From a virus: a stretch of DNA of 64,000 nucleotides. The translations under genes were made by a program, and so were the position numbers. This document shows, one piece after another, positions 33,237 to 63,990 of the stretch. The notes below the pieces were generated by a model that saw only the letters and a list, made by a program, of their open reading frames with translations, searched no databases and was not told the origin of the DNA. The DNA lies in IMG/VR virus record IMGVR_UViG_3300050014_001197, positions 64,001-128,000 of that record. The stretch is one strand, 5' to 3'. Numbering within the stretch: the stretch's first letter is position 1; each line of letters opens with the position of its first letter.

Positions 33237-35567
33237 ATGCCAACTTTAGCTCAAAATATATTTCAATCATTTAGATCTACTGGATCAATTTTTACAGGGG
33301 ATGCTATTTCTGGTGGTAAATTATCAAAAACTTTTGATGAACCAACCTATCTAACTTTTCGTGTTGGATTTCGTTCAGCTAATACAAGCTTAGAATTAAC
33401 TAATTATGATAAAATGCCTCATCCTCTTTTCGAATTATACAAAGAAGATGATATTAATGCTAGGAATTTTTATTCGACGAGACAATTTCTAAGAGACGCT
33501 AATGAATTTGGTCGTGAACAAATGCTTTTGGATTTCATCGAAAAATGGAATACTCTTCAAAATAATTATCAATATTATTTTCAAAATATTTCGGGCATTG
33601 ACTCCCTATTAAAAATTGACCCAAAAAGAGGTATTCGTGTTTCAAAAGATGGCAAGGTTACTATGAAAATGCTTGAAGGCCTTGATTTGAGGGTAACCCA
33701 TCTCTTAAATTTATATCGTAAGATTGCCTGGGATGATGTTTATCAAAGATGGATTCTTCCAGATATGATGAGATATTTTATGATGGATATTTATATTACT
33801 GAATTTAGAATTTTCCATCAATCAAATCTAAAAATAAATTCTCAAACTCAATCTAGTGATAAAATTTATCCTCCAAAACAAACTGCTGTTCAAAAATATT
33901 TACCAGAACTTTCAAATCCTTCGGGAAAATATCAAAGTTCTGAAGTTCCCGAAATGATTCTTACAGCGATGGATGATTTGATGCCAACTTATGTTCTTCA
34001 TTGTGAAAGATGTGAAATAGATATAACTTCTTTAAACACTCACTTCAATGATTTAAATGTTAGTGAACCATCAATGACAGAAGTAAGCTTTGATATTAAA
34101 GTAGGAACACTTACAGAAGAATATAGAAATCCCCTTTTAGATTATTATTACACGGATCGAATTATAAATGGTTTAGAAAGGACTCGAGAATTTTCTTTGG
34201 CCGCTGGTGAAGCTCTTCCTATCATATCAGGGTTGGGAATAGGATTAATTCCTGCTATGGAAAATATTCCATATACTCCTTCAAAAATTTCGGGAAATAC
34301 TAATGCCCGTCCATTTATAAATCCCGATGTGGATTATGGACAAAAAGGATCTCATATATCGGGAAAACCTTTTATTGAATCCGGGGGATCAGGCCAATCA
34401 AATCTTTTAAATGCCTCACAAGCTATACAACCGCCAACTTGGATTGGAAATACTTTAACTTTTGGAAAAGCATTTGCAGAAAATCTTCTTGAAACAACTA
34501 TTAGTAAAGGAAAAATAACAAAAATTCCGGGATTGGGAGTTTCTTTCGGCGAAGCTCTTGCAGCTATTCAAAGTAAGAATGTTTTTACAGTATTTGGTTT
34601 AGTTCGTCAAGCAATGACTCAAAGACTTTCAGCCACAATGCCTTCTCAAGAATTAGAGGGAGATATAATTGATGGAGCATTTAGAGCTTTTGTTTCAAAA
34701 ATGTCCAAATCAAAAGCTACTGATGCTGAAGGTATGGAATTAACTAGAGCTGCAAATCAGGTTTTAAGTGATAGAGGAATCTGGGAACAAATTAAAGATA
34801 TGTCTAAAGCAACTGATTTAATTTCTCAAGCATTAGGTGAGATTAATATAGGTAAACCTCTAGAAAATAAAAATGCATTAAAATTAAATACAGAGGCACT
34901 TACCAATGGAGATAGATCGCTAGCAACAGATCTTGGCACCCTTAAATTAGTAGGGGGTCCTTTAGTTTATAATGGAATTCTTACAAGTACATCTACTTCT
35001 GGATCCATTGATAATAAAGGCGTAACAAGAACAAAATTAGGATCCACAGAAGGGGAAGTTCAAAATGGGGAATTTGCAGGGACCAGTTCAACTATAGAAG
35101 GACAATTACAACCAGTAGAATTTTTAGGATCAAAACCCAATACAGGAATTGAAGAAGGAGGATTAAATACTATTCCTCCGAGTGCTGCTACTTCTAAAGA
35201 TGGATTGCAGCCAGCAGAATTTTCAGGATCAAAACCTAAAATAGGAATTCAGGATGGAGGATTTACTACGATTGTTCCTAGCTTAGCTACTTCTAAAAAA
35301 GATATTTTAGAAAAAGGAGCATTTATAGGATCTTCTTCAAAGGCAGGAATTACAGAAGGAGGATTAAATACTTCTGATCCAGGACAAGCAACAAAAGGAG
35401 AAATAGAAAATGCAAAATATCTTTTTGGCAATGTATCAAAAAAACAAGGAATAACTCAAAAAGCTATTGAAAGGCGAAAACCCGGAGAAGCAACAGATGA
35501 TACAAAGCTTCAACCAATACCTAGACCGGATAAAGGAAATATAAATAAACCTATAAATGAAAGCTAA
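33237..35567 (+). CDS. Large virion structural protein with C-terminal ~35-aa tandem repeats
   Basis: Repeats EGQLQPVEFLGSKPNTGIEEGGLNTIPPSAATSK / DGLQPAEFSGSKPKIGIQDGGFTTIVPSLATSK / GAFIGSSSKAGITEGGLNTSDPGQATK. Confidence 0.4.
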   Translation: MPTLAQNIFQSFRSTGSIFTGDAISGGKLSKTFDEPTYLTFRVGFRSANTSLELTNYDKMPHPLFELYKEDDINARNFYSTRQFLRDANEFGREQMLLDFIEKWNTLQNNYQYYFQNISGIDSLLKIDPKRGIRVSKDGKVTMKMLEGLDLRVTHLLNLYRKIAWDDVYQRWILPDMMRYFMMDIYITEFRIFHQSNLKINSQTQSSDKIYPPKQTAVQKYLPELSNPSGKYQSSEVPEMILTAMDDLMPTYVLHCERCEIDITSLNTHFNDLNVSEPSMTEVSFDIKVGTLTEEYRNPLLDYYYTDRIINGLERTREFSLAAGEALPIISGLGIGLIPAMENIPYTPSKISGNTNARPFINPDVDYGQKGSHISGKPFIESGGSGQSNLLNASQAIQPPTWIGNTLTFGKAFAENLLETTISKGKITKIPGLGVSFGEALAAIQSKNVFTVFGLVRQAMTQRLSATMPSQELEGDIIDGAFRAFVSKMSKSKATDAEGMELTRAANQVLSDRGIWEQIKDMSKATDLISQALGEINIGKPLENKNALKLNTEALTNGDRSLATDLGTLKLVGGPLVYNGILTSTSTSGSIDNKGVTRTKLGSTEGEVQNGEFAGTSSTIEGQLQPVEFLGSKPNTGIEEGGLNTIPPSAATSKDGLQPAEFSGSKPKIGIQDGGFTTIVPSLATSKKDILEKGAFIGSSSKAGITEGGLNTSDPGQATKGEIENAKYLFGNVSKKQGITQKAIERRKPGEATDDTKLQPIPRPDKGNINKPINES
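35090..35400. repeat. Three tandem ~105-nt coding repeats
   Basis: Seen in the translation of 33237..35567. Confidence 0.5.
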
Positions 35568-35868
35568 GTTTGTATTTGAAAGTATTAATTTTGAACGTGG
35601 ATTAGATCCAATAACTGCTATGGGAATAGGCAAGGAGTGGACTCCTGAAGATTTAATTAATATTTATAAAGAATTATTAATTATAACTATACAAACAGAA
35701 TACAGAAAACCTTTTATTAAAGAAGTTAATGATTTTATCCCTCGTAGATATAAACCAGATGTTGGATGGGGAAATTTAGATACTCCTATGTTTATTTTAG
35801 ATGAAGATGAATTTGAAAACATAAAAAATATACTTCTTAAATATTATAATCGAATAAAGAAGAAATGA
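35557..35868 (+). CDS. Leader-motif family small protein (MKAKFVFESINFERGLDPITAMGIGKE)
   Basis: Family motif at the N-terminus. Confidence 0.55.
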   Translation: MKAKFVFESINFERGLDPITAMGIGKEWTPEDLINIYKELLIITIQTEYRKPFIKEVNDFIPRRYKPDVGWGNLDTPMFILDEDEFENIKNILLKYYNRIKKK

Positions 35869-36641
35869 TACCAGATGGCCTACATTTAACGTTTAAAGAT
35901 CTTCATGACAATGATTGGCTTGGAGTTATCACGAACAATATTGATCCAACTTTTTCAGGTCGATGCCAAATTCGTGTGTATAGGTTAATGGATAATCTTA
36001 ATGCAGCAGATCTTCCCTGGGCTGTACCAATCAACTCTACAATTTTTGCAGGAGACGGAGCAGGATCATTATCAATTCCTAAGATAGGCCAGATAGTCCG
36101 TATCCAGTTTAACAATGGAGATATTTACTCGCCTGAATATACAACTATTCAAAATATAGATACGCAATTAATACAAAGGATCAAGGATGATTACGATGGA
36201 ACACATGTTTTACTTTATGATCCCGATGAAGAATTAACGGCCATTTATCAAAGAGGCAGTGGATTTCAAATATTTTATAGAGGAAGTTTTGTTCAGATTT
36301 CTCCAGATAGTATGATTACAATTCAACATGCTAATCAGGATTCTATGATTCAACTTGATGGGGATAAATTAAATATTGTAACAAAGAATGAAGTTAATGT
36401 TTCTGCTTCAGCTAAAGTTTCTATTAATGCTGATGAAGTTATAGCAAGTGGAAACCAAATAACAAAATTGGGACCAGGCCCCTATTATCATGCAGTTTTA
36501 GCAGAAGTTTTATTTCCTTTATTACAAACTATGGCAACAGCAATAGATTCCAAAGCTCCTTTTACTCCTGGAGTAAATGTGGGGTTGGTTCAGCAAGCAA
36601 AACAAGCAGCTACCTCAACTAATGTTTTAGTTTCAAAATGA
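35865..36641 (+). CDS. Baseplate hub/spike protein, gpV / gp5-N-terminal OB-fold-like
   Basis: LGVITNNIDPTFSGRCQIRVYRLMD...LPWAVPINSTIFAGDGAGSLSIPKIGQIVRIQFNNGDIYSPEYT parallels the gpV/VgrG OB-domain GVVxDNxDPxxLGRVKVRxP...WARVxxPxAG...GxxxxPxVGDEVLVxFxxGDxxxPxVLG. Confidence 0.55.
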   Translation: MIPDGLHLTFKDLHDNDWLGVITNNIDPTFSGRCQIRVYRLMDNLNAADLPWAVPINSTIFAGDGAGSLSIPKIGQIVRIQFNNGDIYSPEYTTIQNIDTQLIQRIKDDYDGTHVLLYDPDEELTAIYQRGSGFQIFYRGSFVQISPDSMITIQHANQDSMIQLDGDKLNIVTKNEVNVSASAKVSINADEVIASGNQITKLGPGPYYHAVLAEVLFPLLQTMATAIDSKAPFTPGVNVGLVQQAKQAATSTNVLVSK

Positions 36642-38047
36642 TAGTTAAAGAAAACATAAATTTCGAAAGAGGATTAGATCCTAAATCCTCCATGAAAATT
36701 GGTCTCCCTACAAAAATTAAAAATGGATTGTGGGGTCTTTATCATGAAAGAGGAACAGGTTCTATTAATTTAATGGAGAGATTTGATCGTGTTTGGCTTA
36801 GAGTAGAAGATTATGGCACTGATTCAGAGATATTTAGAAAGAATGTTTACAAAAATTTTGGAACAGAATTCTTTAGCGATATTGATCAAAGAAATAATTC
36901 TCTTAAAAAAGGAGGATGGACTTTTCATCTTGTCATTAAACCAGAATATCACCAGATATTTAAAAATGCTTTTACGCCAGATGGGCTTATCAAAGAATCG
37001 TTAAATTTTGAGAGAGGACAGAATCCGAGAGAAATCCTAAAATTGGGTCTCCCTACAAAAATTAAAAAAGGAATATGGGGGCTTTCAAGTGAAAGGGGAG
37101 TTTCCACCATTAATATTTCGGGGAATAGAGATTGTGCGTGGTTAGATGTTACAGATTATATTGATAATGAAAAACTTTTCTTAAATTATGTTAAGAAAAA
37201 TTTCGGAAGTGACTTTTTTAGTGATATAGAAATAAAACCTATTCAGAAAAAACTATCAAGAATAAAAGGAAGATCCTGGAGAACTGAACATAAATTAATT
37301 ATTAAATCAGAATATCAGCAATTTTTTAAAAATGCTTTCACACCGGATGGACTTATTAAAGAATCATTAAATTTTGAAAGAGGACAAGATCCAAAAGATG
37401 CTATGTCTATTGGAAGAGTGGAGGAAAGAAAACAAAAATTAATTGCAGAAATTACAGAATATGATCCAGAATCCTGGAGTGGTAGTTCTGTCTTATCAGA
37501 TTATATACGGAATGCATTGAGCCCTCATCATTTTGGCTCTCGGTCATGGGATCTTTCGACTTTAGAAGAAGCCTCTACAGAAGAACTTCGGCATGCTTTA
37601 GAATATCTCAAAAAGTGGGAAAGAATTGAAAAGAAACAAGCAGAGCAAAGATTAAAAAGATATAATAATGAATCCCTGGATTTCGAGAGAGGACAAGAAC
37701 CGAAAAAAGCTATGAATATAGGCTGGGGAGGTTTTCTTATAAAAAATATACAAGGACTTGAACACGAAGGATATACTTACGATATAAACAATAAAGAAAT
37801 AGCTGAAATTATTAGGAAAAATATTCCAGAAATAAATGATAATGAGTTAAGCAGATTTTTTGCTGATACTTTGGATGATATTCTTGATCATATTTCGGCA
37901 ATTGATTTCAGAAAAAAAGATTACAAAAATATTACATGGTATATTAAAGATCAAATTGCATCCCAATCTAGATACTGGATGTCTATACATAGTGATTCAG
38001 CTATGAGACAGATAATGAGAAACTCTGGAATGAATGTCAATTTCTAA
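36638..38047 (+). CDS. Leader-motif family protein with four tandem motif-initiated modules
   Basis: MIVKENINFERGLDPKSSMKIG; IKESLNFERGQNPREILKLG; IKESLNFERGQDPKDAMSIG; ESLDFERGQEPKKAMNIG. Modules 1 and 2 are ~120-aa near-duplicates (LPTKIK.G.WGL..ERG...IN...). Confidence 0.6.
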   Translation: MIVKENINFERGLDPKSSMKIGLPTKIKNGLWGLYHERGTGSINLMERFDRVWLRVEDYGTDSEIFRKNVYKNFGTEFFSDIDQRNNSLKKGGWTFHLVIKPEYHQIFKNAFTPDGLIKESLNFERGQNPREILKLGLPTKIKKGIWGLSSERGVSTINISGNRDCAWLDVTDYIDNEKLFLNYVKKNFGSDFFSDIEIKPIQKKLSRIKGRSWRTEHKLIIKSEYQQFFKNAFTPDGLIKESLNFERGQDPKDAMSIGRVEERKQKLIAEITEYDPESWSGSSVLSDYIRNALSPHHFGSRSWDLSTLEEASTEELRHALEYLKKWERIEKKQAEQRLKRYNNESLDFERGQEPKKAMNIGWGGFLIKNIQGLEHEGYTYDINNKEIAEIIRKNIPEINDNELSRFFADTLDDILDHISAIDFRKKDYKNITWYIKDQIASQSRYWMSIHSDSAMRQIMRNSGMNVNF

Positions 38048-38056
38048 ATCAATCTC

Positions 38057-41410: not shown

Positions 41411-41506
41411 TCTTTTCCTAGCATGCCACCGTTGCCTATATAATTTATTTTTTATTTTGAAGTCTTTTTCGTATATTTGCAGTAGATAAATATAAAAAAC
41501 GAAGAG

Positions 41507-42244
41507 ATGAAAAAACTTGTTTGCGAATCCCTAGAGGAATTATATGGAACCGATCAACCTGAAATAGAATATTCAGGTGGTGAAAAAGCTGCTATATCAA
41601 GAGGTAATGATGTTATAACCAAACCACAACTAGCTGCGATGTATTTAGCTGCTAAAGATGCTATGGGAAGATCAGAAGATACTCGAGGTAGAGGCGATAG
41701 CGGAATGACACGTAATGCACTAAAAATGGGCAAAGAAGAGAATACAGATTTCCAAAAGCTATCTGCTCCAAGACTAGGAGATGTATTGGGTCTCAAACCT
41801 CGTACGGTTAGTTATACAATATCTAAATTTAGACTTTTATTACAAGGAAATCGTGAAGGAATCTTTGGCAATGATTTATATGATAAAATAATAAATGCGT
41901 TTGATGAATTTAAAGGAATGGAGGATCAAGGTCTTTCTGGAGAGTTATACTCATTAGCCAGCGAAGCTGTTAATATGGATGCAGGTACAGAGATATCCGA
42001 CAAATGGGCTGAAGAAACATCGGATCAAGGTAGAAAAACAAGAGAAAAAATTCAGAAAAGAAATGCGAAAATTATTCAAGCCACCTATGATTTATACAAT
42101 CAACTCAGAAGAGTTTTGGGTGAAAAAGCACCAAAGGCAGTTGTTAATAAACTTTCCACAGAATATAAGTTGTCCCCCGAGGATCTTCGCACAATAATTA
42201 AGACCAATCTTAAGAATGATCCAAATTTAGCCAGAAAATTTTAA
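41507..42244 (+). CDS. Hypothetical protein with a variant leader N-terminus (MKKLVCESLEELYG)
   Basis: The N-terminus is shared with 54100..54732 (MKKLVCESIEQLF) and resembles the family leader up to E-S-L. Confidence 0.4.
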   Translation: MKKLVCESLEELYGTDQPEIEYSGGEKAAISRGNDVITKPQLAAMYLAAKDAMGRSEDTRGRGDSGMTRNALKMGKEENTDFQKLSAPRLGDVLGLKPRTVSYTISKFRLLLQGNREGIFGNDLYDKIINAFDEFKGMEDQGLSGELYSLASEAVNMDAGTEISDKWAEETSDQGRKTREKIQKRNAKIIQATYDLYNQLRRVLGEKAPKAVVNKLSTEYKLSPEDLRTIIKTNLKNDPNLARKF

Positions 42245-42252
42245 GTAGAGGA

Positions 42253-42492
42253 ATGGGAATAATCAGGGAATCTTTAAATTTTGAACGTGGGCTTGAGCCA
42301 AAAACTTCCATGAATGTAGGTAAATCTCATCTTGATCAAGAAGTTATGGATGAAACTGATTGGGCAATTGATCTCGAAAAGCATTTATTTCTTTATGATA
42401 TTATTAAACTCATTAGAGATTACAGAGGTTATCCTATTCTTGTTCTGAAAAATAAACAGCAACTACCCCCGAAAAAGCTTTGGATAATCTAA
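42253..42492 (+). CDS. Leader-motif family protein, short (possibly decayed) tandem paralogue
   Basis: MGIIRESLNFERGLEPKTSMNVGK...ETDW...LIRDYRGYPILVL. Same architecture as 42480..42917 but lacks its C-terminal half. Confidence 0.4.
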   Translation: MGIIRESLNFERGLEPKTSMNVGKSHLDQEVMDETDWAIDLEKHLFLYDIIKLIRDYRGYPILVLKNKQQLPPKKLWII

Positions 42493-42917
42493 AAAGAAGT
42501 ATCGATAGCGAAATAGCAAAAGAAGATACTTCTCATAATGCATGGAAAGAGGAACAAAAAAAATTAAAAGAATCTTTGAATTTTGAAAGAGGATTAGAAC
42601 CTAAAAAATCTATGGGAATTGGATTAACAGTTCTTGATAAAAAAATTATTGAAGAAACTAATTGGAGTGAAAATCTTGACAATATTTTACAAGTAGCTGA
42701 CATTGTGAAACTAATTAGAAATTATCAAAATTATCCTATACTTATTATTAAATTTCGTCCTGAAAACTTTGCTGTTGGCCAAGAGCTTTATATAGGAATT
42801 TCTCCAGCAGATAAAACTGATATGGTTGAAACTGAGGAAATAGCTATCCATGATGCTAAAATAGATATAGAGAACTATTACATTCGAGAAAAATATAAAA
42901 AAACATTATACCCATGA
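42480..42917 (+). CDS. Leader-motif family protein
   Basis: ESLNFERGLEPKKSMGIGL...EETNW...LIRNYQNYPILIIK...YIGIS. Confidence 0.5.
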   Translation: MDNLKRSIDSEIAKEDTSHNAWKEEQKKLKESLNFERGLEPKKSMGIGLTVLDKKIIEETNWSENLDNILQVADIVKLIRNYQNYPILIIKFRPENFAVGQELYIGISPADKTDMVETEEIAIHDAKIDIENYYIREKYKKTLYP

Positions 42918-43732: not shown

Positions 43733-43734
43733 TA

Positions 43735-52707: not shown

Positions 52708-52716
52708 TACAGTTTT

Positions 52717-54095: not shown

Positions 54096-54099
54096 GATT

Positions 54100-54732
54100 C
54101 TAATATTTTAATTTTTTGAATCCTTCACTTGTAATTGAGGCCATTTGCCATGCTCTTTTTACTTGATAAGCTGGATCTTTAGAACCAAATCCCGGAGCAA
54201 CATGTTTTGCTTTGAATAAAGGAGATTTAATATGTTCCTGCCCAAAATCTTCTTCAGTTCTTTGTTCGCTTCTTTGATAATCTTTTACAGAAACTAATTC
54301 CGTTTTAAATCCATCTGGTCTTTTCTGATCTTTTAATTTCTGCCAATCCATATCTAATACTTCAATCTTCCATTTTTTACCTAAAATAGGCTGGCCAAGT
54401 TCTTTTTCAAGATCCGAAATAAGAAGCAAAAAATCTTCAGCATCCGGATATTCCCAAAAACTAATCATTTTTTTATTTAGCCATACTCTTCCTGAGAAAA
54501 ATCTTCCCTGTTTCCTAATCCCCTCTGGATGCGTTTGCCCTGCTGGTCCTAAAATAAAATTACCTTCTTCATCATACCAAAAAGGATGAGCGTCTTCATC
54601 TGTAAAATAAGGAGATTTAGATGGATCACTATTCACGGGTTCCCCAAATCTATTATAAGTAAGATTAGGAAGAGAAATCTCATCTGGGCTCTCAAATAAT
54701 TGTTCTATGGATTCGCAAACTAGCTTTTTCAT
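54100..54732 (-). CDS. Hypothetical protein with a variant leader N-terminus (MKKLVCESIEQLF)
   Basis: Shares its N-terminus with 41507..42244. Confidence 0.4.
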   Translation of the reverse strand: MKKLVCESIEQLFESPDEISLPNLTYNRFGEPVNSDPSKSPYFTDEDAHPFWYDEEGNFILGPAGQTHPEGIRKQGRFFSGRVWLNKKMISFWEYPDAEDFLLLISDLEKELGQPILGKKWKIEVLDMDWQKLKDQKRPDGFKTELVSVKDYQRSEQRTEEDFGQEHIKSPLFKAKHVAPGFGSKDPAYQVKRAWQMASITSEGFKKLKY

Positions 54733-55907
54733 TCCAAATCATCTAATTTATTAATGAGCGAATCATTTATATCTTCCATTGTCATATCTCCGCTATAACT
54801 TTGTGGAGGATTATATTCAATTTTATCTTCTCCGGTTGCTAGTGTAAATGATAAAAGTTTAATACCTTCAAAATCACAAGGAGCTACAAAAAATTCTTTG
54901 CTTTCATCATATTTAGCATCCCCAATATGATAATGCTTTTTAATAGCTCTTTGTAAATCCATATAAGCTTCAGATTCATCAGCAAGAGCTGTAGCTTCAC
55001 TATAAGCAAATCTAACAGCATCACAGAGATCTGATAGATCTTCATTTTCCTGAATTTCTTCTAAAAGATCATCTATTGTTTCCGTTTTATTCGGGTCTGC
55101 TCCCATTTCAATAGCTTTATCTTTTAGATCTTTTATAGCAGGGATTTGTTTTCCTTTTTGCAGAACTCTATTAATAGGCCATGCAAAATCCGTAATGTCT
55201 TTATATTCTCTTACGCCATAATCAAAATATTCATAAGAACCATCTCCAGATAAAACTGCTTCGATAAATTGCGAATTTACATCTCTTGAAGTTGTATCAA
55301 AATAATCTGCAAAATTACCCCAATCCTTAAAATAAAGAACATAACTATTTTCTGTAAATTTATATTTAAAATTATCATCTTTAAACGGAGCATAGGGAAT
55401 CCATTCAATTTCTCTATATGCTAATTCAAGATAATCATTTTCATCTAGATCCTTATTATATTCTGGTTTTGTAATAAGAAATTTGATCCATTTGTCTCTG
55501 GTTTCCCTGTCTAGCTCTTCTTCTCTTCCTTCATTTAATAAATATGAAATCCATAAAGATGGGCTTGAACTTGTTTTATCATCTAAAAAATTTCTAATAG
55601 TTTCTTCAATACCTATTCCAAGAGATTGCTTAGGAGTTAATCCTCTTTCGAAATCAAGGGATTCCCTAACTACCCCAGATTTAAAATGGCCATGATTAAG
55701 AAGAGCTTGAACCCAAAAATCCCGGGTTTCTTCTCCTAGCTGAGGGTCATTAAGTATATTTGGAATCCATTCTTCTGGAGAATCCCAGCCTTTTTCTTTT
55801 GCATACTCCCTAACTTTTTTAAGAAGACCGATTTCAAGAATTTTAATAAGTTCTAATTCTTGCCTATCCTCTCGATCGTAATCGATATATTCTTTTACCA
55901 AAGCCAT
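54729..55907 (-). CDS. Hypothetical protein with an internal leader motif (ESLDFERGLTPKQSLGIGIE)
   Basis: Motif at residues ~82-101. Confidence 0.45.
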   Translation of the reverse strand: MALVKEYIDYDREDRQELELIKILEIGLLKKVREYAKEKGWDSPEEWIPNILNDPQLGEETRDFWVQALLNHGHFKSGVVRESLDFERGLTPKQSLGIGIEETIRNFLDDKTSSSPSLWISYLLNEGREEELDRETRDKWIKFLITKPEYNKDLDENDYLELAYREIEWIPYAPFKDDNFKYKFTENSYVLYFKDWGNFADYFDTTSRDVNSQFIEAVLSGDGSYEYFDYGVREYKDITDFAWPINRVLQKGKQIPAIKDLKDKAIEMGADPNKTETIDDLLEEIQENEDLSDLCDAVRFAYSEATALADESEAYMDLQRAIKKHYHIGDAKYDESKEFFVAPCDFEGIKLLSFTLATGEDKIEYNPPQSYSGDMTMEDINDSLINKLDDLE

Positions 55908-56206
55908 TATTCATCAACTAATTTAAATCCAGTTTCTTCTTCTAATTGTTTTTCATATTTATAAAAAACATTATCTCTTATCTCTCTTGCATCTGATTCC
56001 CTTTGGCCATCATCCCCAGCTTCTTCATAAGCTTGTCGCATATCAACATTAATTTGTCTTATGAAATATTCCGCTTCTTTTTTATTTCTTAAAAACCCCT
56101 CAATTCGATAATCATTACATAATTTAAGAATAATTTTCCTACCTAGTTGTAAAGTATCTCTAGGATCTTTTCCTCTTTGAAAATCTATGGTTTCTTGAAC
56201 TATCAT
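55907..56206 (-). CDS. Leader-motif family small protein (MIVQETIDFQRGKDPRDTLQLGRK)
   Basis: N-terminal motif. Confidence 0.5.
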   Translation of the reverse strand: MIVQETIDFQRGKDPRDTLQLGRKIILKLCNDYRIEGFLRNKKEAEYFIRQINVDMRQAYEEAGDDGQRESDAREIRDNVFYKYEKQLEEETGFKLVDE

Positions 56207-56646
56207 ACAACAATACGACCGCCAACGTTACAGATTTTTTTGATTTCGTCAACAGTAAATTTATTTTCATTTTTCTTAATATAGAAATCCCCACTAACCT
56301 CTTCAGGACATCCATCAAGATTCACTAATTTATTCCCATCTACCATAAAATCACCCTTCACTATTTTTGGACATCCATTCATAGATTTTAAATAATTATC
56401 TCTTATAAAAAAATTTCCACTGCAAATATTAAATTGAATATCTTCTGGAATTTCATAAATAGCTTTATTTTGAGGAATAACCACTTCTTTTGTATCAATG
56501 GTCCACTCTGAATTGATCCTAGCTCGAGAAAAAGGAATATATTGCTTTAACCATATATCAATTTCCTTTTTCTTACCTAATGACAAAACTTCAGAGGGGT
56601 TTCTTCCCCTCTGAAATTCTAGTAAGCTTTCAAGAACAAGCTTCAT
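56203..56646 (-). CDS. Leader-motif family protein with C-terminal LRR-like GCP repeats
   Basis: MKLVLESLLEFQRGRNPSEVLSLGKK, then L-x-x-M-N-G-C-P-K-I-V-K-G-D-F / L-V-N-L-D-G-C-P-E-E-V-S-G-D-F repeats. Confidence 0.5.
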   Translation of the reverse strand: MKLVLESLLEFQRGRNPSEVLSLGKKKEIDIWLKQYIPFSRARINSEWTIDTKEVVIPQNKAIYEIPEDIQFNICSGNFFIRDNYLKSMNGCPKIVKGDFMVDGNKLVNLDGCPEEVSGDFYIKKNENKFTVDEIKKICNVGGRIVV

Positions 56647-56661
56647 ATATTAAGTTTTATT

Positions 56662-58281
56662 TTAGAAAATATCTTTGTATTTAACAATAAATCTATCTAC
56701 GCCTTCTTTGTATTTGTCTCTTCCTTCAACTTCACCAAGTTCTTCGTGAATATAAGGATGAATATCAATCATCATTTTTAATCCTCTTGTTGCAAGTGAA
56801 CCATTATCAAGACGAATAAGATATGTTACAAAGTTATTAAATTCATCTGGAGTAATATCTCTTCCCCTTGTTGATGTACAAACGAGAGAGATAAGAGCAT
56901 TAGCTTCTGACTGATCAAATCCTGAACCAGCTTTTTTAGGCATACGTGCCTTATCTGGGTGGGTAAGAACTTCTTTAATATCTTCTTTTTTGAATGATTC
57001 AAGAAGTCTTAGGAATGTCTGAAATTCTGTTGCAATATCCATACCAACATCAGAACCAACTACCTCAGTAATATCCTTATTGGTTACATTATAGCCTTCA
57101 TCTTTAGCATCTTGCATAAGAGCAGCTATATTATTTGAAGCAGCTTCCCATGAACGAGGAGATGCAAAGATACTCTTTTCCGGATCATCATCAAGAGTAT
57201 AGAAATATTCTTGATTAAATTCCAAGAAGTCAACAATACGAGAATCTATTGGACTTTTAGAAGGATCCGTTTTATTATATTCTTGCTTTTTACCTTTTTC
57301 CTGAGTTTTTTCTGGGGTTTCTCTTCCTTTAGTTGAAGCCCATTCTTTCCATCCTTTGAAATCAGGAATATAATTTATCTGGGAAAATCTATTTCCTAAA
57401 GCTGTTGAAAAGTTCTGAACGCTTTCTGAATCATCTCCTGCTCTATTAGATGCTGAAATAATTGACCATTTAGAACCTAAAATTGCATCACCAATTATTC
57501 TTTCATCGATAAGTTTCAAACAAGTATTTTGAACTGAACTAGGTGCACGAGAAAGTTCATCTAAGAAAAGAACCCCGCCATCGCCAAAATTAGCAATCTC
57601 ATCTCTTCTTTTATTTTCAGCTGCATCATCGCTTTTAATGTAAACAGGAAGCCAGGATTTAGGAATATCCCTTGCTTTAAGTTCATCATCTATTTTATAA
57701 GTTGCAGGAAGTGACCAATCATCAGGAGCCATTTTAGATGTTTGTACATCAATAAGTCTTCCTTGAGGATTTACTAATTCCAAAACAGATTTTACTATTT
57801 GTGTTTTTCCTATCCCAGGTGCTCCCCAAATCATAACAGGTTTAATTCTGGGATATTTAATACACATACGAACCCTTCTTTGAAATCCTTTTTTATCTAC
57901 ATTTGGTACATTTTTATCGGGATGATCAAGAGAGATTTTAGCCTCATTAACAACACTTTCTTGAACATTATTTCCTCCTCTTTTTTGAATAAGCATTTCT
58001 CTAGTAAGAGATCCTAATTGGGGGTTTACCTCAATATCTGATTTTGATGGAACATAAGAAATTCCTTTAAAAAGAGCGCCTTCTTTAACCAGGATACCAA
58101 TATTAACAGGAGCCATAGCTTCTGTAGTTGGTTTGCCTTGGAACATAAAAAAGAAGAGTTTTCCTATTTTTTGGAAAAATTTCTTAATAGCTCCCCCGAT
58201 TTTGCTAAATATAGCTTCATTTAATTCTCCCTGGTTAATTTGAAAATCCTGAAGGGATTCAAATACTAATTGTTTCTTCAT
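56662..58281 (-). CDS. MoxR-family AAA+ ATPase (AAA_5-like)
   Basis: Walker A MIWGAPGIGKTQIV, Walker B GVLFLDELSRAP, sensor-like region. N-terminus MKKQLVFESLQDFQ resembles the family leader. Confidence 0.6.
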   Translation of the reverse strand: MKKQLVFESLQDFQINQGELNEAIFSKIGGAIKKFFQKIGKLFFFMFQGKPTTEAMAPVNIGILVKEGALFKGISYVPSKSDIEVNPQLGSLTREMLIQKRGGNNVQESVVNEAKISLDHPDKNVPNVDKKGFQRRVRMCIKYPRIKPVMIWGAPGIGKTQIVKSVLELVNPQGRLIDVQTSKMAPDDWSLPATYKIDDELKARDIPKSWLPVYIKSDDAAENKRRDEIANFGDGGVLFLDELSRAPSSVQNTCLKLIDERIIGDAILGSKWSIISASNRAGDDSESVQNFSTALGNRFSQINYIPDFKGWKEWASTKGRETPEKTQEKGKKQEYNKTDPSKSPIDSRIVDFLEFNQEYFYTLDDDPEKSIFASPRSWEAASNNIAALMQDAKDEGYNVTNKDITEVVGSDVGMDIATEFQTFLRLLESFKKEDIKEVLTHPDKARMPKKAGSGFDQSEANALISLVCTSTRGRDITPDEFNNFVTYLIRLDNGSLATRGLKMMIDIHPYIHEELGEVEGRDKYKEGVDRFIVKYKDIF

Positions 58282-58300
58282 TGTAGTTCAAGTTTTATTT

Positions 58301-59020
58301 TTATACTTTATTTATCTTTTCTTTAAATCTTATTATTTCTTTGTCTGTTAATTCCTCTTGAGCTTTGTGATGATTAATTAAAAAATCTAAAATTGGTTTC
58401 CAAGCTTCTATTTGAGGACCCATTATTCCTACTTTACTTAATTTAGAAGCAACTAATTGTATGGATCTTTTAATCTTAACTCTTGGATCTTTTATTAATT
58501 CTTTTATAATAGCAATATATTGATTAGAAGCAGCTTCTAAAATAATATAATTGTCATTTAAAACTGTATTAGAATTCCTATCCAAGGATTCTTTACTATC
58601 GGCTGGATTAACTCTCGGATCCTCCATAAGTCTCTTAACAACTTCCAATTGATTATTTTTAACAGCTTGATATAAAGCTTCATTATGATTATCAGCAGGA
58701 TTTACCCTATCATCTTTTAAAAGAGCATCTACAGCTTCAACTGATCCTTTCATAGCAGCAATAGCAACAACAGCATTTTTTCGATATGCTGGATTAGCTG
58801 AAGGATCTGAAAGAAGAAGTTTAATAATATCGGCTCTTCCCATTAAAGCTGCTTTATAAAGAACTTCATTTTTATTTGCAGGATCTAATATCTGATGCCT
58901 TTGTTGAGGAATATTGCTTACTTCTTTTACAAAATCGCCAATAAGTTTTTCTCTGCCAATACCTATTTCGGCTTTGACATCACCCCCTCTTGTAAATCCT
59001 AAGGATTCTCTAACTATCAT
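58301..59020 (-). CDS. Leader-motif family ankyrin-repeat protein
   Basis: MIVRESLGFTRGGDVKAEIGIGRE, then ankyrin repeats (ALYQAVKNNQLEVVKRLMEDPRVNPAD...). Confidence 0.55.
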   Translation of the reverse strand: MIVRESLGFTRGGDVKAEIGIGREKLIGDFVKEVSNIPQQRHQILDPANKNEVLYKAALMGRADIIKLLLSDPSANPAYRKNAVVAIAAMKGSVEAVDALLKDDRVNPADNHNEALYQAVKNNQLEVVKRLMEDPRVNPADSKESLDRNSNTVLNDNYIILEAASNQYIAIIKELIKDPRVKIKRSIQLVASKLSKVGIMGPQIEAWKPILDFLINHHKAQEELTDKEIIRFKEKINKV

Positions 59021-59943
59021 AACTCCCCCGCTCCTTTGTAACTATTGAATTTTTTTATAGAAGATTCCTTCATATTAAAAATATTATCTCTAACCCTTTG
59101 ATTAGTTAAAAGTAATTGACACATTTTTATATTTTCATTAGACAAAGCAGCAGCTAAAGCCCAATTTGCTTTGCTTGCTGGATTTACTCTTTTATCATTT
59201 AATAGTAATTTTACAACCTCTAAATGCCCTTCTTTTGCTGCTCTTCTAATACAGAAATTTGTTTCGTCACTTTTATATCTTTTACCACTTTTTGTATTAT
59301 CGCCTGGGTTAACTATTGGGCTTGCTAATAATAATTTTACCAATTCTGCATCTCCTTGTTGACAAGCATTTTGAATAGGTTCGTTATAAGTATGATTCAA
59401 GTTTGTTGCTCCATTTTCAATCCCCCATATTTCTAATTCTCTTTCCCCTCGAGTGGATCCTAAAAGAAAAGCTTTATTTGCTCCAAGTTTTTTTGTTTCT
59501 TCAAGTGTTCTCTTTGAATCATACTGACGAAATTCATTAAAGGTAAAATCGTTTATCCATTTTGGATTACTCCATATATCTTCTGCTCTTCCTAAAACAA
59601 AAAATAAGTTTACCCAGAATCCAGCGTGATGCTCTAATTTATTTGGATTAAATGTTAAAACTTTATCCATAATTTCTTTTAGAATTTCACGAATAACAGA
59701 ATTTTTATTTTTATGCTCTTCAGCATATAATCTTAGAAATTTCTTTGTATCAATTCCATATAAATTATTTTCAGTTAACTGAGATAGAGATTGTGGGATT
59801 AAATCTTTATCTTTTACCGGATCCCAAGCAAATTCATTCCTTATTTTCTCTATAATTTGAAGAAAGAGTCCTGCTTTTCCTATTCTCATTGTTTCAATAG
59901 GATTTCCGCTTCGAGTGAAATTAATACTTTCCCTAACAATCAT
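59017..59943 (-). CDS. Leader-motif family ankyrin-repeat protein
   Basis: MIVRESINFTRSGNPIETMRIGKA, with C-terminal ankyrin repeats (IRRAAKEGHLEVVKLLLNDKRVNPAS). Confidence 0.55.
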   Translation of the reverse strand: MIVRESINFTRSGNPIETMRIGKAGLFLQIIEKIRNEFAWDPVKDKDLIPQSLSQLTENNLYGIDTKKFLRLYAEEHKNKNSVIREILKEIMDKVLTFNPNKLEHHAGFWVNLFFVLGRAEDIWSNPKWINDFTFNEFRQYDSKRTLEETKKLGANKAFLLGSTRGERELEIWGIENGATNLNHTYNEPIQNACQQGDAELVKLLLASPIVNPGDNTKSGKRYKSDETNFCIRRAAKEGHLEVVKLLLNDKRVNPASKANWALAAALSNENIKMCQLLLTNQRVRDNIFNMKESSIKKFNSYKGAGEL

Positions 59944-61700
59944 TATCCTAAATTAATTTGTTTACCAAATGGCTGTTTCCATCCTGGATTACCATAAATT
60001 ATCCAAATAAATTTATGAGCATAAGGTGGTTTCTTTGGATTAGGAGCACCCCCATCAGTCATAAATACCAATAGGGAAACTCGGTCTTTTAAATGTTCAT
60101 GAACCCAATCAAGAGCTTTCTGGAAGTCTGTTCCCCCTCCCCCGCTAATTCCTTTAGGAATATAAGGTTTTCCCATTCTTTTAATAGTTTGAACACTCTT
60201 ATCGTCAACCCCATCATCAAAGAAAGCAATAGTTATTTTGTTTACTCTTTTTGAAAAGATAATTTGATTTATTTCATTAATAATTTTATTAAGAGCTTCT
60301 TGACCCATAGATCCGGAAACGTCAACTAAGACGACTATATTTTCCATAGCATCTTGCTTATGCTTTTCTCCATAACGAAGATATTCTCCGCCTAGATGTT
60401 TTTTATTTCCAATTTTTTGATAAACCTCAGGGGAAAGTGCTGTCGCAACATATCTTCTAAAAAGATTTTTCCAGTTAACATCCCCTCTATGGAGACGATA
60501 AAGAGCTTTTACAAGGGATTCTCCCTTTCCCCGCCCTCTTCCTTTTTGTCCCTTTTCAGCACGGTCAAGCATCTTAGATCCTTCAACTCTCCATTTATCG
60601 GTTGGATTTTCATCAGGACCCATTTCTCCTTCACCGTATCCGCTAGCTTTAGCAATTTTCTTTCCCATTTCAGGAGAAATAATGCCGCCAGTTCCTGCAG
60701 GATCAAATTCTCCAGTTTGATCTAATGTTTCATCATATCCTTCATCACCAGCTCCCCCTACACCGCCACTATTATCTCCTTCACCTCCGCCTTCTCCTCC
60801 TTCACCTTCTCCTTCACCATCTCCCCCATCACTAATAGAAATTAATTCTTCTTGTTTATATCCTTCATTAATTAATCTAGGATAAATAAAAGCTTCATTA
60901 AGGGGATTTACTTCAAAAGTTCCATCTGCGTTAACAGCTGTAACAATTCCCTTTTGACCTGTAGCTTTAATTTTAACTTTGGAACCAACCGCTAAAGGCT
61001 GTTTTCCTCCCCCTTTTCCTTTTCCCCCTGGTTGTCCTTGACCTCCAGCTCCCCCGCCAGATCCTCCTTCTCCTTGATTTTGTCCTTGATTATTCTTTGA
61101 AGCTGGATTAGGTGGCATTTTGGGAATTGTTTTCTTAAGTTCGTCATAAATAACTTCAACGGGTATATTAAGCCACTTAGCATCATAAAGACCTCCAAGT
61201 TTTTTAACAAATTCTTCATCAAAATCATTTAAAGTATCAACGATAATATCATTTATTTCATAATCCCCTGCAATATTAAAAAGAGAAGCAGGTTTGCCGT
61301 CTGAAGTTTGAACTATAGCATTTCTAGTTTTCATTCTATCCATATGAAGAAGTACGCAATGCATAATCTCATGAACAAGAACAAATATTATTTGATTCCA
61401 GCTTAATTTATTAGCAAAGCTAGGATTAACAAAGAGACGAGTTCCATCAGTTGCCATAGTAGGAACTAACCATGTATAAATTGGAGTAAACTTATGAACA
61501 TAAGGAGCAAATAATTGGCTTTGAGAAACGATAGCAGTTTTAGCACTATCCATTTCGGTCTTTAAATGTCTCATGTCTATTTTAGTTCCATCTTTAGCAA
61601 ACACGTATCCATAATCCTCTATTTTAGCGGATTTCGGAATTTCTAATCCTCCCTTTGCTTCAGATATAAAATTTCTTAATTTAGGATAAAATTCTTTCAT
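59943..61700 (-). CDS. VWA-domain protein with an N-terminal HExxH metallopeptidase-like domain (DUF2201/CoxE-like partner of MoxR ATPases)
   Basis: VHEIMHCVLLH (HExxH), MIDAS motif VLVDVSGSMG, and two Gly-rich linkers. Confidence 0.55.
   Translation of the reverse strand: MKEFYPKLRNFISEAKGGLEIPKSAKIEDYGYVFAKDGTKIDMRHLKTEMDSAKTAIVSQSQLFAPYVHKFTPIYTWLVPTMATDGTRLFVNPSFANKLSWNQIIFVLVHEIMHCVLLHMDRMKTRNAIVQTSDGKPASLFNIAGDYEINDIIVDTLNDFDEEFVKKLGGLYDAKWLNIPVEVIYDELKKTIPKMPPNPASKNNQGQNQGEGGSGGGAGGQGQPGGKGKGGGKQPLAVGSKVKIKATGQKGIVTAVNADGTFEVNPLNEAFIYPRLINEGYKQEELISISDGGDGEGEGEGGEGGGEGDNSGGVGGAGDEGYDETLDQTGEFDPAGTGGIISPEMGKKIAKASGYGEGEMGPDENPTDKWRVEGSKMLDRAEKGQKGRGRGKGESLVKALYRLHRGDVNWKNLFRRYVATALSPEVYQKIGNKKHLGGEYLRYGEKHKQDAMENIVVLVDVSGSMGQEALNKIINEINQIIFSKRVNKITIAFFDDGVDDKSVQTIKRMGKPYIPKGISGGGGTDFQKALDWVHEHLKDRVSLLVFMTDGGAPNPKKPPYAHKFIWIIYGNPGWKQPFGKQINLG
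60745..60835. repeat. Low-complexity Gly/Glu-rich coding segment
   Basis: GGDGEGEGEGGEGGGEGDNSGGVGGAG. Confidence 0.5.
61005..61095. repeat. Low-complexity Gly/Gln-rich coding segment
   Basis: GQNQGEGGSGGGAGGQGQPGGKGKGGGK. Confidence 0.5.
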
Positions 61701-61720
61701 ATTTTTTATATTTTAATATT

Positions 61721-63694
61721 TTAATTCCAAATTGTTCCTTTTACTTTAACCCTTTTCCTAATCTCTGATTCTTTCCATTTTTTAGCTCCTGGTTGAGCTG
61801 AGTAAATACTAAAATCTCCATCTACTTCTTTTGGAAATCCTCTCAGATTTGTGAAAATATTATGAGCTACATAGAAACCTCCATATATTTTATTAAAATG
61901 AATAAAATAAGGGAAATTATTTATATGAGCTCCTACAAGATTTATATCTTCTAATACATCAATAGTTCCATCTTTATTTATTCTATATTCTATATAATGC
62001 TCATTAATTTCATCCTGATATATTCCATAGGACTTAAACCAATTTATTATTTGAGCATGAAATCCTAAATCCATAGCTTCCATAGGATCTTCGTTTCTTT
62101 GAAAATCCATAGATTCCTTTATCATATTATCATCAGACCAAATTATTCCGGATTTTACTTTACAAACTTTTATAACATCTTTTCGAGTAAAATGCCCGGG
62201 ATTCCCTTGACAAAGAAAATTTCCATCTATTCTTTTTGGCGCAAATTCTAAAGAGCTAAGTTGATTACCAAAGCATTTGAAATTCCCTTTAAGATCGGGA
62301 GTTTCAAGAACCTGTGTAGGACAACCTCTTAAAGTTTTTAAATTATTATCTGAAATATCAAAACCTCCACAAACTTTTCCAAATTGAATATACGGAGGAA
62401 GTTCTTCTATATCTTTATTTCTTAAAGAAACTACTAAATTAATTTCCGAAGGAATGTTTATAATAAGATCCTTGTCGATAATTGCATCCTCGTATAAATC
62501 TTGTTCCTTTAACCAAGTTTCGATAAGAGCTTTTTTACCGATGCCCATTGAACTTTTAGGCTCTATTCCTCTTTCAAAATTCAAAGATTCCTTAATCGGA
62601 TGTTTATCTAAATAAGCTTTTACCTCTTCTACAGCTTCTTTTGGAGTTTTATAATAATCAGATCTATAATCTGGAGCCATTGCAATGTATTTTTTTCCAT
62701 CTCCATCCCCGTCGCTTTTAGTTTTCATTATTAGGATGGGTTCTCCTCGAAATTTTTTGATTAATCCTAAAATATTAAAATTTTGATGAATAAGATCCTG
62801 AGGTAATTCCCATATAGTTTCTTCAATAATTTTTCTAGTAAGAACTTTATCTCCTATTTCCATAGCTTCTTTAGGATCTATTCCTCTTTCGAAATTCTGA
62901 ACTTCATTCATGCTTCTTGGGAGTAATTTGAATTTTTCTCTAAATTGTTTAGGAGTTCCTGCAAGATATCCAAATCTATCTTGTTCATTTTTTCCATTAT
63001 AATCTTCCATACTAGAAAAATAAATATATCGAAGAACCCATTCTTTTGTAGAAGCATTATCTAATTCTCGAACTTTTAAAATAGTTCCACCCGGGAAATA
63101 ACCATGAGCGTGCGATTCCGAAATTCTATCGTTTTTTATTCCTACCCCTTTTGGCACGTATATTATATCACCCTCTTGTAAAGTTTCCCATGTGGGTATT
63201 CCAATTTCCATAGCTTTTTTAGGATCCTGACCTCTTTGAAAATTAATACTTTCTTTAATAGATTCATTTTTTATATTTTCATATATTCTCATGACAGCCA
63301 AAATGATAGAACCATTTTCAAGTTCCTCCTCATATTTTTCAAAAACATCAGAATCTACTAGTTTTCTTGATTTTATAGATATTAAAGCACAATCTTTTTT
63401 CCCATGATATTTATCTGAATGAAATGGTTCAAAACTATAATAAGAAATAAATCTAATATAATCGCCATCAGATAAATTTATATAAAGTTCCGCATTGGTT
63501 TCATCAGTACTTCCTTCAATAGATAAAATTTTTACATCTCCATAGTGCCATTTTTTAGCTTTAGTTTTTTCTGACTCTTCCCATCCTTCAAGATCTCCAG
63601 AGAATTCAACATCAAAATGGAACATACCAATATCCATGGCAGTCATAGGATCCATTCCCCTCTCAAAGTTAATATTTTCGCTAACTAATTTCAT
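61721..63694 (-). CDS. Leader-motif family protein with five motif-initiated modules and LRR-like GCP repeats
   Basis: MKLVSENINFERGMDPMTAMDIGM; ESINFQRGQDPKKAMEIGIP; VQNFERGIDPKEAMEIGDK; ESLNFERGIEPKSSMGIGKK; ESMDFQRNEDPMEAMDLGF. Also L-K-T-L-R-G-C-P-T-Q-V and N-L-R-G-F-P-K-E-V-D-G-D-F repeats. Confidence 0.6.
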   Translation of the reverse strand: MKLVSENINFERGMDPMTAMDIGMFHFDVEFSGDLEGWEESEKTKAKKWHYGDVKILSIEGSTDETNAELYINLSDGDYIRFISYYSFEPFHSDKYHGKKDCALISIKSRKLVDSDVFEKYEEELENGSIILAVMRIYENIKNESIKESINFQRGQDPKKAMEIGIPTWETLQEGDIIYVPKGVGIKNDRISESHAHGYFPGGTILKVRELDNASTKEWVLRYIYFSSMEDYNGKNEQDRFGYLAGTPKQFREKFKLLPRSMNEVQNFERGIDPKEAMEIGDKVLTRKIIEETIWELPQDLIHQNFNILGLIKKFRGEPILIMKTKSDGDGDGKKYIAMAPDYRSDYYKTPKEAVEEVKAYLDKHPIKESLNFERGIEPKSSMGIGKKALIETWLKEQDLYEDAIIDKDLIINIPSEINLVVSLRNKDIEELPPYIQFGKVCGGFDISDNNLKTLRGCPTQVLETPDLKGNFKCFGNQLSSLEFAPKRIDGNFLCQGNPGHFTRKDVIKVCKVKSGIIWSDDNMIKESMDFQRNEDPMEAMDLGFHAQIINWFKSYGIYQDEINEHYIEYRINKDGTIDVLEDINLVGAHINNFPYFIHFNKIYGGFYVAHNIFTNLRGFPKEVDGDFSIYSAQPGAKKWKESEIRKRVKVKGTIWN

Positions 63695-63990
63695 ACATCC
63701 GAATCATCTGCTTCTACATCACCAACGACGTTACATTTTTGTCTAATATCGTGTTCCGTAAATCTCTTTTCATTTCCCATCACATAAGCATTCCTAACTA
63801 TTTTTCTAGGAAATCCTTCTAGAGAAGTTATTTTATTCATTTGGCAAGAAAAATATCCTATAACAAAAAGAGGAAATCTTTCTAAAGAAACTATACCACA
63901 ATCATCAACATCAAAATCTTTTGTAGATTTAAATTCGATATATTCTGGTAACTTACCATCTGGAAATAAATCTGGTCTTTGCTGATTCAT
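63691..63990 (-). CDS. Small LRR-like (GFP/GCP repeat) protein
   Basis: ITSLEGFPRKIVRNAYVMGNEKRFTEHDIRQKCNVVG parallels the C-termini of 56203..56646 and 61721..63694. Confidence 0.4.
   Translation of the reverse strand: MNQQRPDLFPDGKLPEYIEFKSTKDFDVDDCGIVSLERFPLFVIGYFSCQMNKITSLEGFPRKIVRNAYVMGNEKRFTEHDIRQKCNVVGDVEADDSDV

Follow-up and report, generated by a model that had tools for sequence, protein, structure and literature searches.

A recurrent 20-residue peptide tag on mixed cargo domains in uncultured, apparently T4-like phages: a candidate sorting signal

The internal proteins of phage T4 carry N-terminal capsid-targeting propeptides of 10-19 residues, similar sequences are found on varied proteins of related phages, and the T4 prohead protease gp21 cuts after L/I-x-E (PMC9026906). 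In giant phages (phiKZ, 201phi2-1, SPN3US) a gp21 homolog cleaves a large number of paralogous head proteins behind the Glu of short S/A-x-E motifs, at several sites in each, and the products are ejected into the host (PMC9026906). Family 1 encapsulins rely on cargo peptides (e.g., SGSLNIGSLK or GSLGIGSLR) which are disordered, occur on mixed cargo and bind the interior of a shell with the HK97 fold (PMC10960027). Here we describe a peptide, henceforth referred to as the tag, that recurs at the N-termini and at the internal domain junctions of proteins encoded in a 64,000-nucleotide stretch of viral DNA (IMG/VR record IMGVR_UViG_3300050014_001197, positions 64,001 to 128,000; henceforth the window). 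Its consensus in the window is [IVL]-x-E-S-[LI]-N-F-E-R-G-x-D-P-K-x-[SA]-M-x-I-G, with 24 copies in 14 open reading frames (ORFs). A further point of reference is provided by the MoxR-type AAA+ ATPases, which pair with VWA adaptors (CbbQ-CbbO, NorQ-NorD and RavA-ViaA), the adaptor recognising an acidic residue of the client.

The tag resembles the capsid-targeting sequence (CTS) of T4 IPI, IPII, IPIII and Alt, which is removed by gp21, in being a short N-terminal peptide common to otherwise unrelated small proteins. The two also share a Glu site of the form Φ-x-E (Φ, an aliphatic residue), in our case in a clade with an S77 protease and a gp23-type capsid protein, as well as cargo that is diverse, fast-changing and accessory (PMC9026906). 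By contrast, the CTS has about 10 residues, whereas the tag has 20, is repeated up to 12 times per protein and exists in lineage-specific versions; furthermore, its Φ-x-E stands at the start and not at the end of the conserved block, and the tag is known from genes alone. We know of no likeness between the tag and the T4 propeptide, MKTYQEFIAE, beyond acidic residues. The giant-phage head proteins differ in having no common 20-residue tag and in that their propeptides are removed, not kept, and the phage considered here is T4-like (it has gp13, gp23 and baseplate-wedge homologs) and not phiKZ-like.

A likeness to encapsulin cargo peptides had been suggested in an original prediction made from the letters of the window. 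This stands for the core, [SA]-[ML]-x-I-G in the tag against S-L-x-I-G, which spans five residues only (PMC10960027). It does not extend to location, as encapsulin peptides are C-terminal and single whereas the tag stands at the N-terminus or internally and may be repeated up to 12 times in a protein, nor to the second half of the encapsulin consensus, G-S-L-x-I-G-S-L-[KR], the SL[KR] part of which has no counterpart in the tag (positions 23-26 are unconserved). Finally, as in the MoxR/VWA pairs, an AAA_5 ATPase and a VWA protein with a metal ion-dependent adhesion site (MIDAS) are encoded in the same gene string, but in contrast to known pairs the VWA protein here has an N-terminal HExxH domain and is encoded among about ten tagged genes. 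We know of no client for the phage versions of these pairs.

The tag and the domains that carry it

We built a 22-position Hidden Markov Model (HMM) from seeds selected by regular expression and ran it on the six-frame translation of the window. This gave 24 significant matches (E 1e-13 to 2e-3), in agreement with the at least 24 copies originally predicted; the best score in the non-coding frames was no better than E 0.3. At the DNA level, the pattern TTY-NNN-MGN-GGN-NNN-GAN-CC was found 16 times in the window, against 0.04 expected from shuffled sequence. The tag opens at residues 1-9 of 11 ORFs (named here by their lower coordinate: 35557, 36638, 42253 and 43735 on the + strand; 10608, 53580, 55907, 56203, 58301, 59017 and 61721 on the - strand), it is internal in ORFs 15683, 42480 and 54729, and it is found in multiple copies in 36638 (four), 43735 (four) and 61721 (five). 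The HMM thereby recovered every ORF, repeat and internal copy that the prediction had named. By contrast, the number of ORFs was 14 and not at least 17, the fourteenth (42480..42917) being one missing from the predicted list, and only 22 of the copies lay in the predicted range of 35557..63990, with those at 10989..11057 and 16085..16150 outside it. A fifteenth tag ORF is partial and crosses the right edge of the window.

Six more proteins of the window open with the first part of the tag only, Φ-x-E-[SN]-Φ (0.4 expected, p = 4e-6), which may explain the higher ORF count of the prediction. Five of these partial or 'lite' starts have the form M-K-x-Φ-x-E-S-Φ (41507..42244, 54100..54732, 11057..12025, 52774..53583 and 56662..58281), including those of a MoxR ATPase and a lysozyme-domain protein, and the sixth (26365; MAENIRY) probably fits the pattern by chance.

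As the original prediction had advised, we extended the search to metagenome proteins, using a profile made from the 24 window copies to query 1.84 billion representative proteins. We found 1,663 proteins (clusters, from metagenomes) at E <= 1e-3, 490 at E <= 1e-10 and 76 at E <= 1e-30, the richest having 12 copies in 1,511 residues. We then gathered related loci by degenerate DNA patterns of the tag. The exact pattern for NFERGxDPK was present in 69 stretches of IMG/VR viral contigs and in only 2 contigs among 185,579 bacterial and archaeal species (one genome each). The IMG/VR loci contained 303 tag copies in 208 ORFs; the first copy was no more than 10 residues from the start in 165 of them, with internal copies elsewhere, and successive copies were a median of 121 residues apart.

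As had been supposed, neither the databases Pfam, PHROGs and PDB nor the searchable literature describe the tag. Specifically, Pfam found ankyrin repeats in 2 of 10 tag proteins and nothing else, PHROGs matched 0 of 10, the tag profile had no match in PDB, and the motif strings were absent from the searchable literature. A tblastn search of cultured phages with the five-module protein (61721) matched its leucine-rich repeat (LRR) modules only, and the tag not at all. The modules that follow the tag had been described as unrelated to one another, and indeed 301 modules from 77 proteins fell into 93 BLAST clusters; within the window, however, several modules are paralogs (the ETDW type, the LRR type and the two first modules of 36638). 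Their folds (ankyrin, LRR and GNAT, but mostly unknown) resemble those of effector domains. Module charge is heterogeneous (median isoelectric point 5.9, with 25% above 8.5) and does not follow the T4 pattern of basic internal proteins.

The conservation of the tag has sharp edges. Across 540 copies, information content was about 0.3 bits up to position 2, rose to 2-4 bits from position 3, and after G22 dropped to about 0.4 bits at position 23 (about 0.4-0.5 bits over positions 23-26). The most conserved residues were F9 (100%), E5 (about 100%), R11 and G22 (both 99%), Φ3 and P15 (both 96%) and M/L19 (93%), followed by G12 (89%), I21 (77%), S6 (76%), K16 (74%) and D14 (73-80%); position 10 was Glu in 73-82% of copies and could be E, Q, K or T. 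In the AlphaFold model of the five-module protein (mean predicted local distance difference test score, pLDDT, 73.8) all 5 tags scored below 50 and the domains between them 85-95, and in the weaker model of the four-module 36638 protein (mean pLDDT 56.4) all 4 tags were likewise below 50. The sole structure predicted within these nine modelled copies was a four-residue helix over [SA]-M-x-I. The tag is thus predicted to be a disordered linear motif, situated outside the folded domains.

At the DNA level, pairs of copies with the same amino acid shared the codon in 1,390 cases, compared with 1,317 expected from codon usage, meaning that peptide conservation and codon bias suffice to explain the likeness fully. 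Against the 25-30-mers and variants of the prediction, the longest exact word common to two copies was 24 nt, and mean nucleotide identity was 59%. Given the sharp edges, the pLDDT values and the codon statistics, we therefore rejected both a core strand and DNA recombination as sources of the conservation.

Two tag versions and the junction glutamate

In a 405-kb phage and its kin, a sister lineage whose capsid protein is 81% identical to that of the window, the tag takes a second form, ...Φ-N-E-K-F-T-E-E-S-D-P-I-x-D-M-G-I-G. This type-B tag is two residues longer between N8 and F9 than the type-A tag of the window, and it is likewise found N-terminally and at module junctions. The two versions do not mix: there was no canonical type-A tag among 48 leader-like matches in type-B loci, and no type-B tag among 298 such matches in type-A loci. 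At the same time, homologs in type A were found for 16 of the 37 type-B module bodies (E < 1e-5), with identities of up to 50%. The tag has thus changed in concert across paralogs while the cargo families were kept, which is what would be expected if a single, lineage-encoded receptor fitted all copies. The type-B genes were found in loci L086 (5048..6225) and L157-L168. Two of them lie directly upstream of the protease gene in L086, a position presumably equivalent to that of the core-protein genes 67 and 68 of T4.

A second regularity concerns the Glu near the start of the tag. Using a regular expression blind to positions 1-8, we found this Glu in all 81 copies that were second or later in their ORF, but in only 98 of the 127 first copies (Fisher p = 1.7e-7), i.e., the leading Φ-x-E was absent from 23% of true N-termini in the ORF set and was kept at all internal junctions. 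Twenty-five proteins start directly with M-[ND]-F-x-R-G, and these truncated leaders are not artefacts of start calling, as in 11 N-terminal copies there is a stop codon less than 8 codons upstream of F9. The same asymmetry was seen in the protein set: among 525 internal copies the Glu stood exactly four residues before F9 in 506, and was shifted by a residue or two in all but one of the other 19, whereas about 14 of 141 N-terminal copies had no Glu altogether. The conserved block opens with Φ-x-E in type A and type B alike. This asymmetry therefore suggests that there are two parts, a Glu junction element that is needed only where polypeptide lies upstream, and the tag proper, N-F-E-R-G-x-D-P-K-x-x-M-x-I-G, which to judge from these sequences appears sufficient at a free N-terminus.

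Three other mechanisms were considered and set aside: self-cleavage at D-P (position 14 is Asp in only 73-80% of copies, with Glu and Asn tolerated), 2A-like ribosome skipping (there is no NPGP) and internal translation starts (internal copies have no start codons).

The concerted lineage versions and the junction asymmetry point to recognition by a partner. We consider it highly probable that another protein reads the tag as a signal for targeting or processing, and that the tag is an element neither of a fold nor of the DNA.

Candidate readers of the tag

The reading that we favour, though tentatively, is that the tag combines a cutting site with a docking peptide and so brings domains of ankyrin, LRR, GNAT and unknown type into the prohead. 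The first part, Φ-x-E-[S] (positions 3-6), would be the junction element, most likely the P3-P1 site of the phage's prohead protease, a Peptidase_S77 enzyme of the T4 gp21 type, with cutting after Glu. The second part, [LI]-N-F-E-R-G-x-D-P-K-x-[SA]-M-x-I-G (the type-A 16-mer being SLNFERGQDPKKAMGIG), would be a docking peptide that acts at or near a free N-terminus. Each cargo domain of about 100-140 residues would be tagged in this way, and the tag would dock on the scaffold/protease core or on the inner surface of the capsid, with multi-module proteins entering the prohead like beads on a string. Cleavage by the S77 protease behind the Glu of every junction would then release narrow solenoids and domains of about 12-15 kDa, which would remain in the head, be ejected with the DNA and act on the next host; the model for such ejected cargo is provided by the T4 internal proteins and Alt. 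Cleavage, binding partner, packaging and ejection are the inferred parts of this scheme.

The components that this would require are encoded in the clade. Peptidase_S77 (E 2.4e-15) and Gp23 (E 1.2e-38) were both detected in locus L086, and in 22 relatives the S77 protease gene immediately precedes a Gp23-type capsid gene; some of these relatives have a capsid protein 84% identical to that of the window. The protease is a fusion of 780-815 residues (L086 6916..9261 and 21 homologs, L075-L108), in which the S77 domain is joined to about 600 further residues; this long C-terminal region is probably scaffold-like. Four Φ-x-E-S sites of this fusion are conserved across the clade: V-N-E-S/G immediately behind the protease domain, then L-N-E-S, L-K-E-S/N and Φ-K-E-S, which have the same Φ-[KN]-E-S shape as the tag junction. 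Near residue 43 of the capsid protein, H-A-L-N-E|A-(A/E)-M-G-G is conserved, which we take to parallel ...L-T-E|A-E-I-G-G of T4 gp23.

A targeting or processing signal, one of the roles put forward in the original prediction, is thus the best-supported role, given the sharp and disordered motif, the concerted evolution, the need for Glu at internal positions only, and the S77 protease together with the gp23-type capsid. The form in which it had been cast, a ten-residue propeptide cut after ...NFE, was not supported, since it is E10 that varies and E5, following an aliphatic residue, that is essentially invariant.

Several observations weigh against loading into the prohead. The tag was found in no cultured phage. 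Because the conserved block lies downstream of the proposed cut, the docking part would be kept on the mature protein, the reverse of the T4 CTS, and 20 conserved residues far exceed what a gp21-type site needs. In about 15% of internal copies P3 is K, A, N or R and not aliphatic, and the Glu asymmetry would fit any Glu-dependent function at the junction, with cleavage not required. Tag genes are not consistently beside head genes; those of the window lie among tail and baseplate genes, around the MoxR/VWA-peptidase pair. As for late transcription, it is from gene packing only that we infer it, and T4-type late promoter motifs are not enriched.

That MoxR/VWA-peptidase pair (56662..58281 and 59943..61700) is the strongest rival partner, although we consider it unlikely that the tag is its handle. 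On this account an acidic residue of the tag (E5, E10 or D14; R-G-x-D is reminiscent of integrin-type ligands) would be bound by the MIDAS, cleavage at the junctions would fall to the HExxH domain, and the MoxR ATPase would remodel or load the cargo. Both genes belong to a run of 11 closely packed, co-oriented genes (from beyond 64000 to 53580), the other nine of which have a full or lite tag, and the MoxR protein itself opens with a diverged leader. Gene order is kept in locus L001, and both HEIMH and the MIDAS residues DxSxS...T...D are intact, with no change across 5 orthologs; any dedicated recogniser would be compatible with the junction-Glu asymmetry and the concerted evolution. However, the synteny comes from close relatives only (74-82% identity), so the gene order may be merely inherited. 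In addition, distant phages with a related VWA protein (L173 and L176) have no leader-like genes within 8 kb of it, no DUF2201 homolog was recovered from the type-B 405-kb phage with the narrow search patterns used, and a P1 Glu is a hallmark of gp21-family proteases and not of zincins.

Two other readings, both less probable, explain fewer observations. The tag might be an uncut docking peptide, adding a β-strand to a partner's sheet together with a short helix, so that small binding domains, alone or in chains, are plugged onto a single structural scaffold outside the head (baseplate, tail or fibres) or onto a cytoplasmic assembly. This would suit the location of tag genes within strings of baseplate and tail genes, both in the window and in relatives, the binding nature of ankyrin and LRR modules, the disorder of the tag when alone (as in motifs that fold on binding) and its lineage-specific versions. 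We nevertheless find it doubtful, as it leaves unexplained why Φ-x-E is obligatory internally and dispensable N-terminally, and the known phage tail-fibre and spike anchors are folded domains and not 20-residue peptides. It seems improbable, in turn, that the tag binds a conserved host hub (e.g., a chaperone, protease adaptor or secretion component) and so brings cargo to a host machine. A disordered, sharply bounded motif on mixed cargo resembling effector domains would be consistent with this, but two clearly different tag versions occur in phages with 81% identical capsid proteins, which fits a phage-co-evolving partner better than a conserved hub; moreover, the DNA pattern had just two exact matches among the 185,579 species, each represented by one genome, and up to 12 copies per chain would be unusual for a hub-binding motif.

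Very improbable, finally, is the notion that the motif is the first structural element (strand or helix) of a repeated domain of about 110 residues, or that it is kept alike by DNA recombination or gene conversion between cassettes: the spacing of about 121 residues and the words of 15-24 nt common to copies would suit it, but the bodies form 93 unrelated BLAST clusters (ankyrin, LRR and GNAT folds included), all nine modelled tags lie outside the folded domains, mean nucleotide identity is 59%, and the likeness at synonymous sites does not exceed that expected from codon bias.

Genomic setting and implications

The window (31.6% G+C, 98% coding, with start and stop codons often overlapping) has the gene content of a very large, uncultured, T4-like myovirus, to which we assign it on that basis. 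Alongside the capsid and baseplate genes listed in Table 1, the gene for neck protein gp13 is just past its right end, and relatives retrieved via the capsid protein (70-85% identity) have contigs of up to 405 kb. A megablast search of cultured phages with 25 kb returned a 68-bp match to Lak phages only. This match (29453..29520, inside ORF 28682..31036) shows 87% identity with each of the nine Prevotella Lak megaphage genomes; the 784-residue protein of that ORF had no match in Pfam, PHROGs or PDB. A tRNA scan found none.

Table 1 Tag genes and neighbouring features of the window (positions in the window; tag positions in nucleotides unless residues are given)
Feature	Position	Strand	Tag and remarks
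gp23-type capsid gene, 3' part only	30..1145		
149-residue single-module protein	10608..11057	-	Tag at residues 1-23 (10989..11057; HMM E 2.4e-6), with a one-residue insertion (FQRGGEDP)
245-residue protein	15683..16420	+	Leaderless conserved N-domain of 134 residues, then tag (16085..16150), then ETDW-type module; same architecture in proteins P0045, P0057 and P0063
103-residue single-module protein	35557..35868	+	Tag 35566..35631 (MKAKFVFESINFERG...); overlaps the 3' end of the upstream gene (776 residues) by 11 nt
OB-fold spike protein	35865..36641		
469-residue four-module protein	36638..38047	+	Four 66-nt tags, at 36638, 36983, 37349 and 37658; ATGA overlap of its start with the stop of the OB-fold baseplate-spike gene
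Broken two-module gene	42253..42917	+	ORFs 42253..42492 (tag 42256) and 42480..42917 (tag 42558); out-of-frame deletion of about 25 codons relative to module 1 of P0025, TPEKALDNLKRSID going on in the +2 frame; probably a decaying copy, as the downstream half has no proper start codon
469-residue four-module protein	43735..45144	+	Tags at 43738, 44074, 44425 and 44818
Baseplate wedge protein	50433..52328		
Lysozyme-domain protein	52774..53583		
171-residue single-module protein	53580..54095	-	Tag 54030..54095; ortholog in relative locus L001 70% identical
210-residue protein	54100..54732	-	Partial ('lite') N-terminus MKKLVCESIEQLF; paralog of 41507..42244 (N-terminus MKKLVCESLEEL)
392-residue protein	54729..55907	-	Degenerate N-terminal tag (MALVKEYIDYDRE...EIG); full tag at residues 79-100 (55611..55676)
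99-residue single-module protein	55907..56206	-	Tag 56141..56206
147-residue protein, tag and LRR module	56203..56646	-	Tag 56575..56640
MoxR-type AAA+ ATPase (AAA_5, E 4e-10)	56662..58281	-	Diverged or 'lite' N-terminal tag (MKKQLVFESLQDFQ...SKIGG)
239-residue protein, tag and ankyrin repeats	58301..59020	-	Tag 58955..59020, variant FTRGGDVKAEIGIG
308-residue protein, tag and ankyrin repeats	59017..59943	-	Tag 59878..59943
DUF2201 zincin-like peptidase and VWA (VWA_2) protein	59943..61700	-	No tag, within the tag-gene string; HEIMH at residue 110; MIDAS motif intact, DVSGS at 460-464 (DVSGS...GGGGT...TDGG conserved); at residues ~200-330, between the peptidase and VWA domains, two Gly/Gln/Glu-rich low-complexity stretches around a small conserved segment VGSKVKIKATGEKGVVTAVNPDGTYEV
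657-residue five-module protein	61721..63694	-	Tags 63626..63691, 63200..63265, 62852..62917, 62537..62602 and 62063..62128; LRR fold in modules 4 and 5
3' part of a gene for 155 residues	63691..64000	-	First in-frame ATG at 63990 (ORF 63691..63990); runs off the window; begins beyond 64000, as the L001 ortholog opens with a tag followed by an LRR-type body

The place of tag genes varies between loci: in the window they adjoin or overlap genes of the baseplate, in L097 they come after the capsid gene and in L086 before the protease gene. A survey of neighbour associations over the 69 loci found shared gene order with the baseplate region only. In several relatives, genes resembling GIY-YIG homing endonucleases are found between structural and tag genes (L097 11145..11894 on the - strand; L001 7308..8048 and 8780..9469; L004 8486..9151), one of them separating the capsid gene from a run of tag genes.

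The T4 late-promoter motif TATAAATA was found 17 times in the window against 15 expected, i.e., it is not enriched, so it provides no promoter argument for the tag genes. Copies are present at 35540..35547 and 43724..43731, 4-17 nt before the start codons of tag genes 35557 and 43735, and further ones lie upstream of 1273 and 52707. Elsewhere in the window, a dense block of glycosyltransferase and methyltransferase genes adjoins the capsid gene (1935..10152, - strand; GT25, GT10/FucT, NodZ/FUT8-like, GT47-like, DUF5672 and Methyltransf_24, recognised via identical genes on L003), which may serve to modify virion or cell-surface glycans, and a gene for glutamine-dependent asparagine synthase (Asn_synthase and GATase_7) is found at 21801..23204.

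The tag marks at least 1,663 unannotated protein clusters and provides a one-line rule by which their members can be split into functional units of about 120 residues. The resulting catalogue would list candidate effectors for delivery, with ankyrin, LRR, GNAT and about 90 unknown types of module, drawn from uncultured phages whose contigs reach 405 kb, and the two tag versions constitute a natural experiment in which the receptor might be found by co-variation. The tag is best filed under the idea of T4-type head targeting and processing, from which it differs in having two parts, in being repeated in chains and present in lineage versions and, if cut as proposed, in being retained. If its receptor were the MoxR/VWA-peptidase pair, or another partner outside the head core, it would represent a new kind of phage tag and receptor and not a variant of the CTS.

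It is conceivable, and we advance it with caution, that huge T4-like phages have a dedicated sorting system, in which a lineage-specific, 16-residue N-terminal address tag behind a Glu junction would bring dozens of interchangeable effector domains, singly or in chains of up to 12, to one destination where they are cut apart. Such a system would explain the beads-on-a-string proteins, and its tag, being compact and portable, could serve to load foreign proteins into large capsids; it would also show very large phages scaling up the internal-protein strategy of T4.

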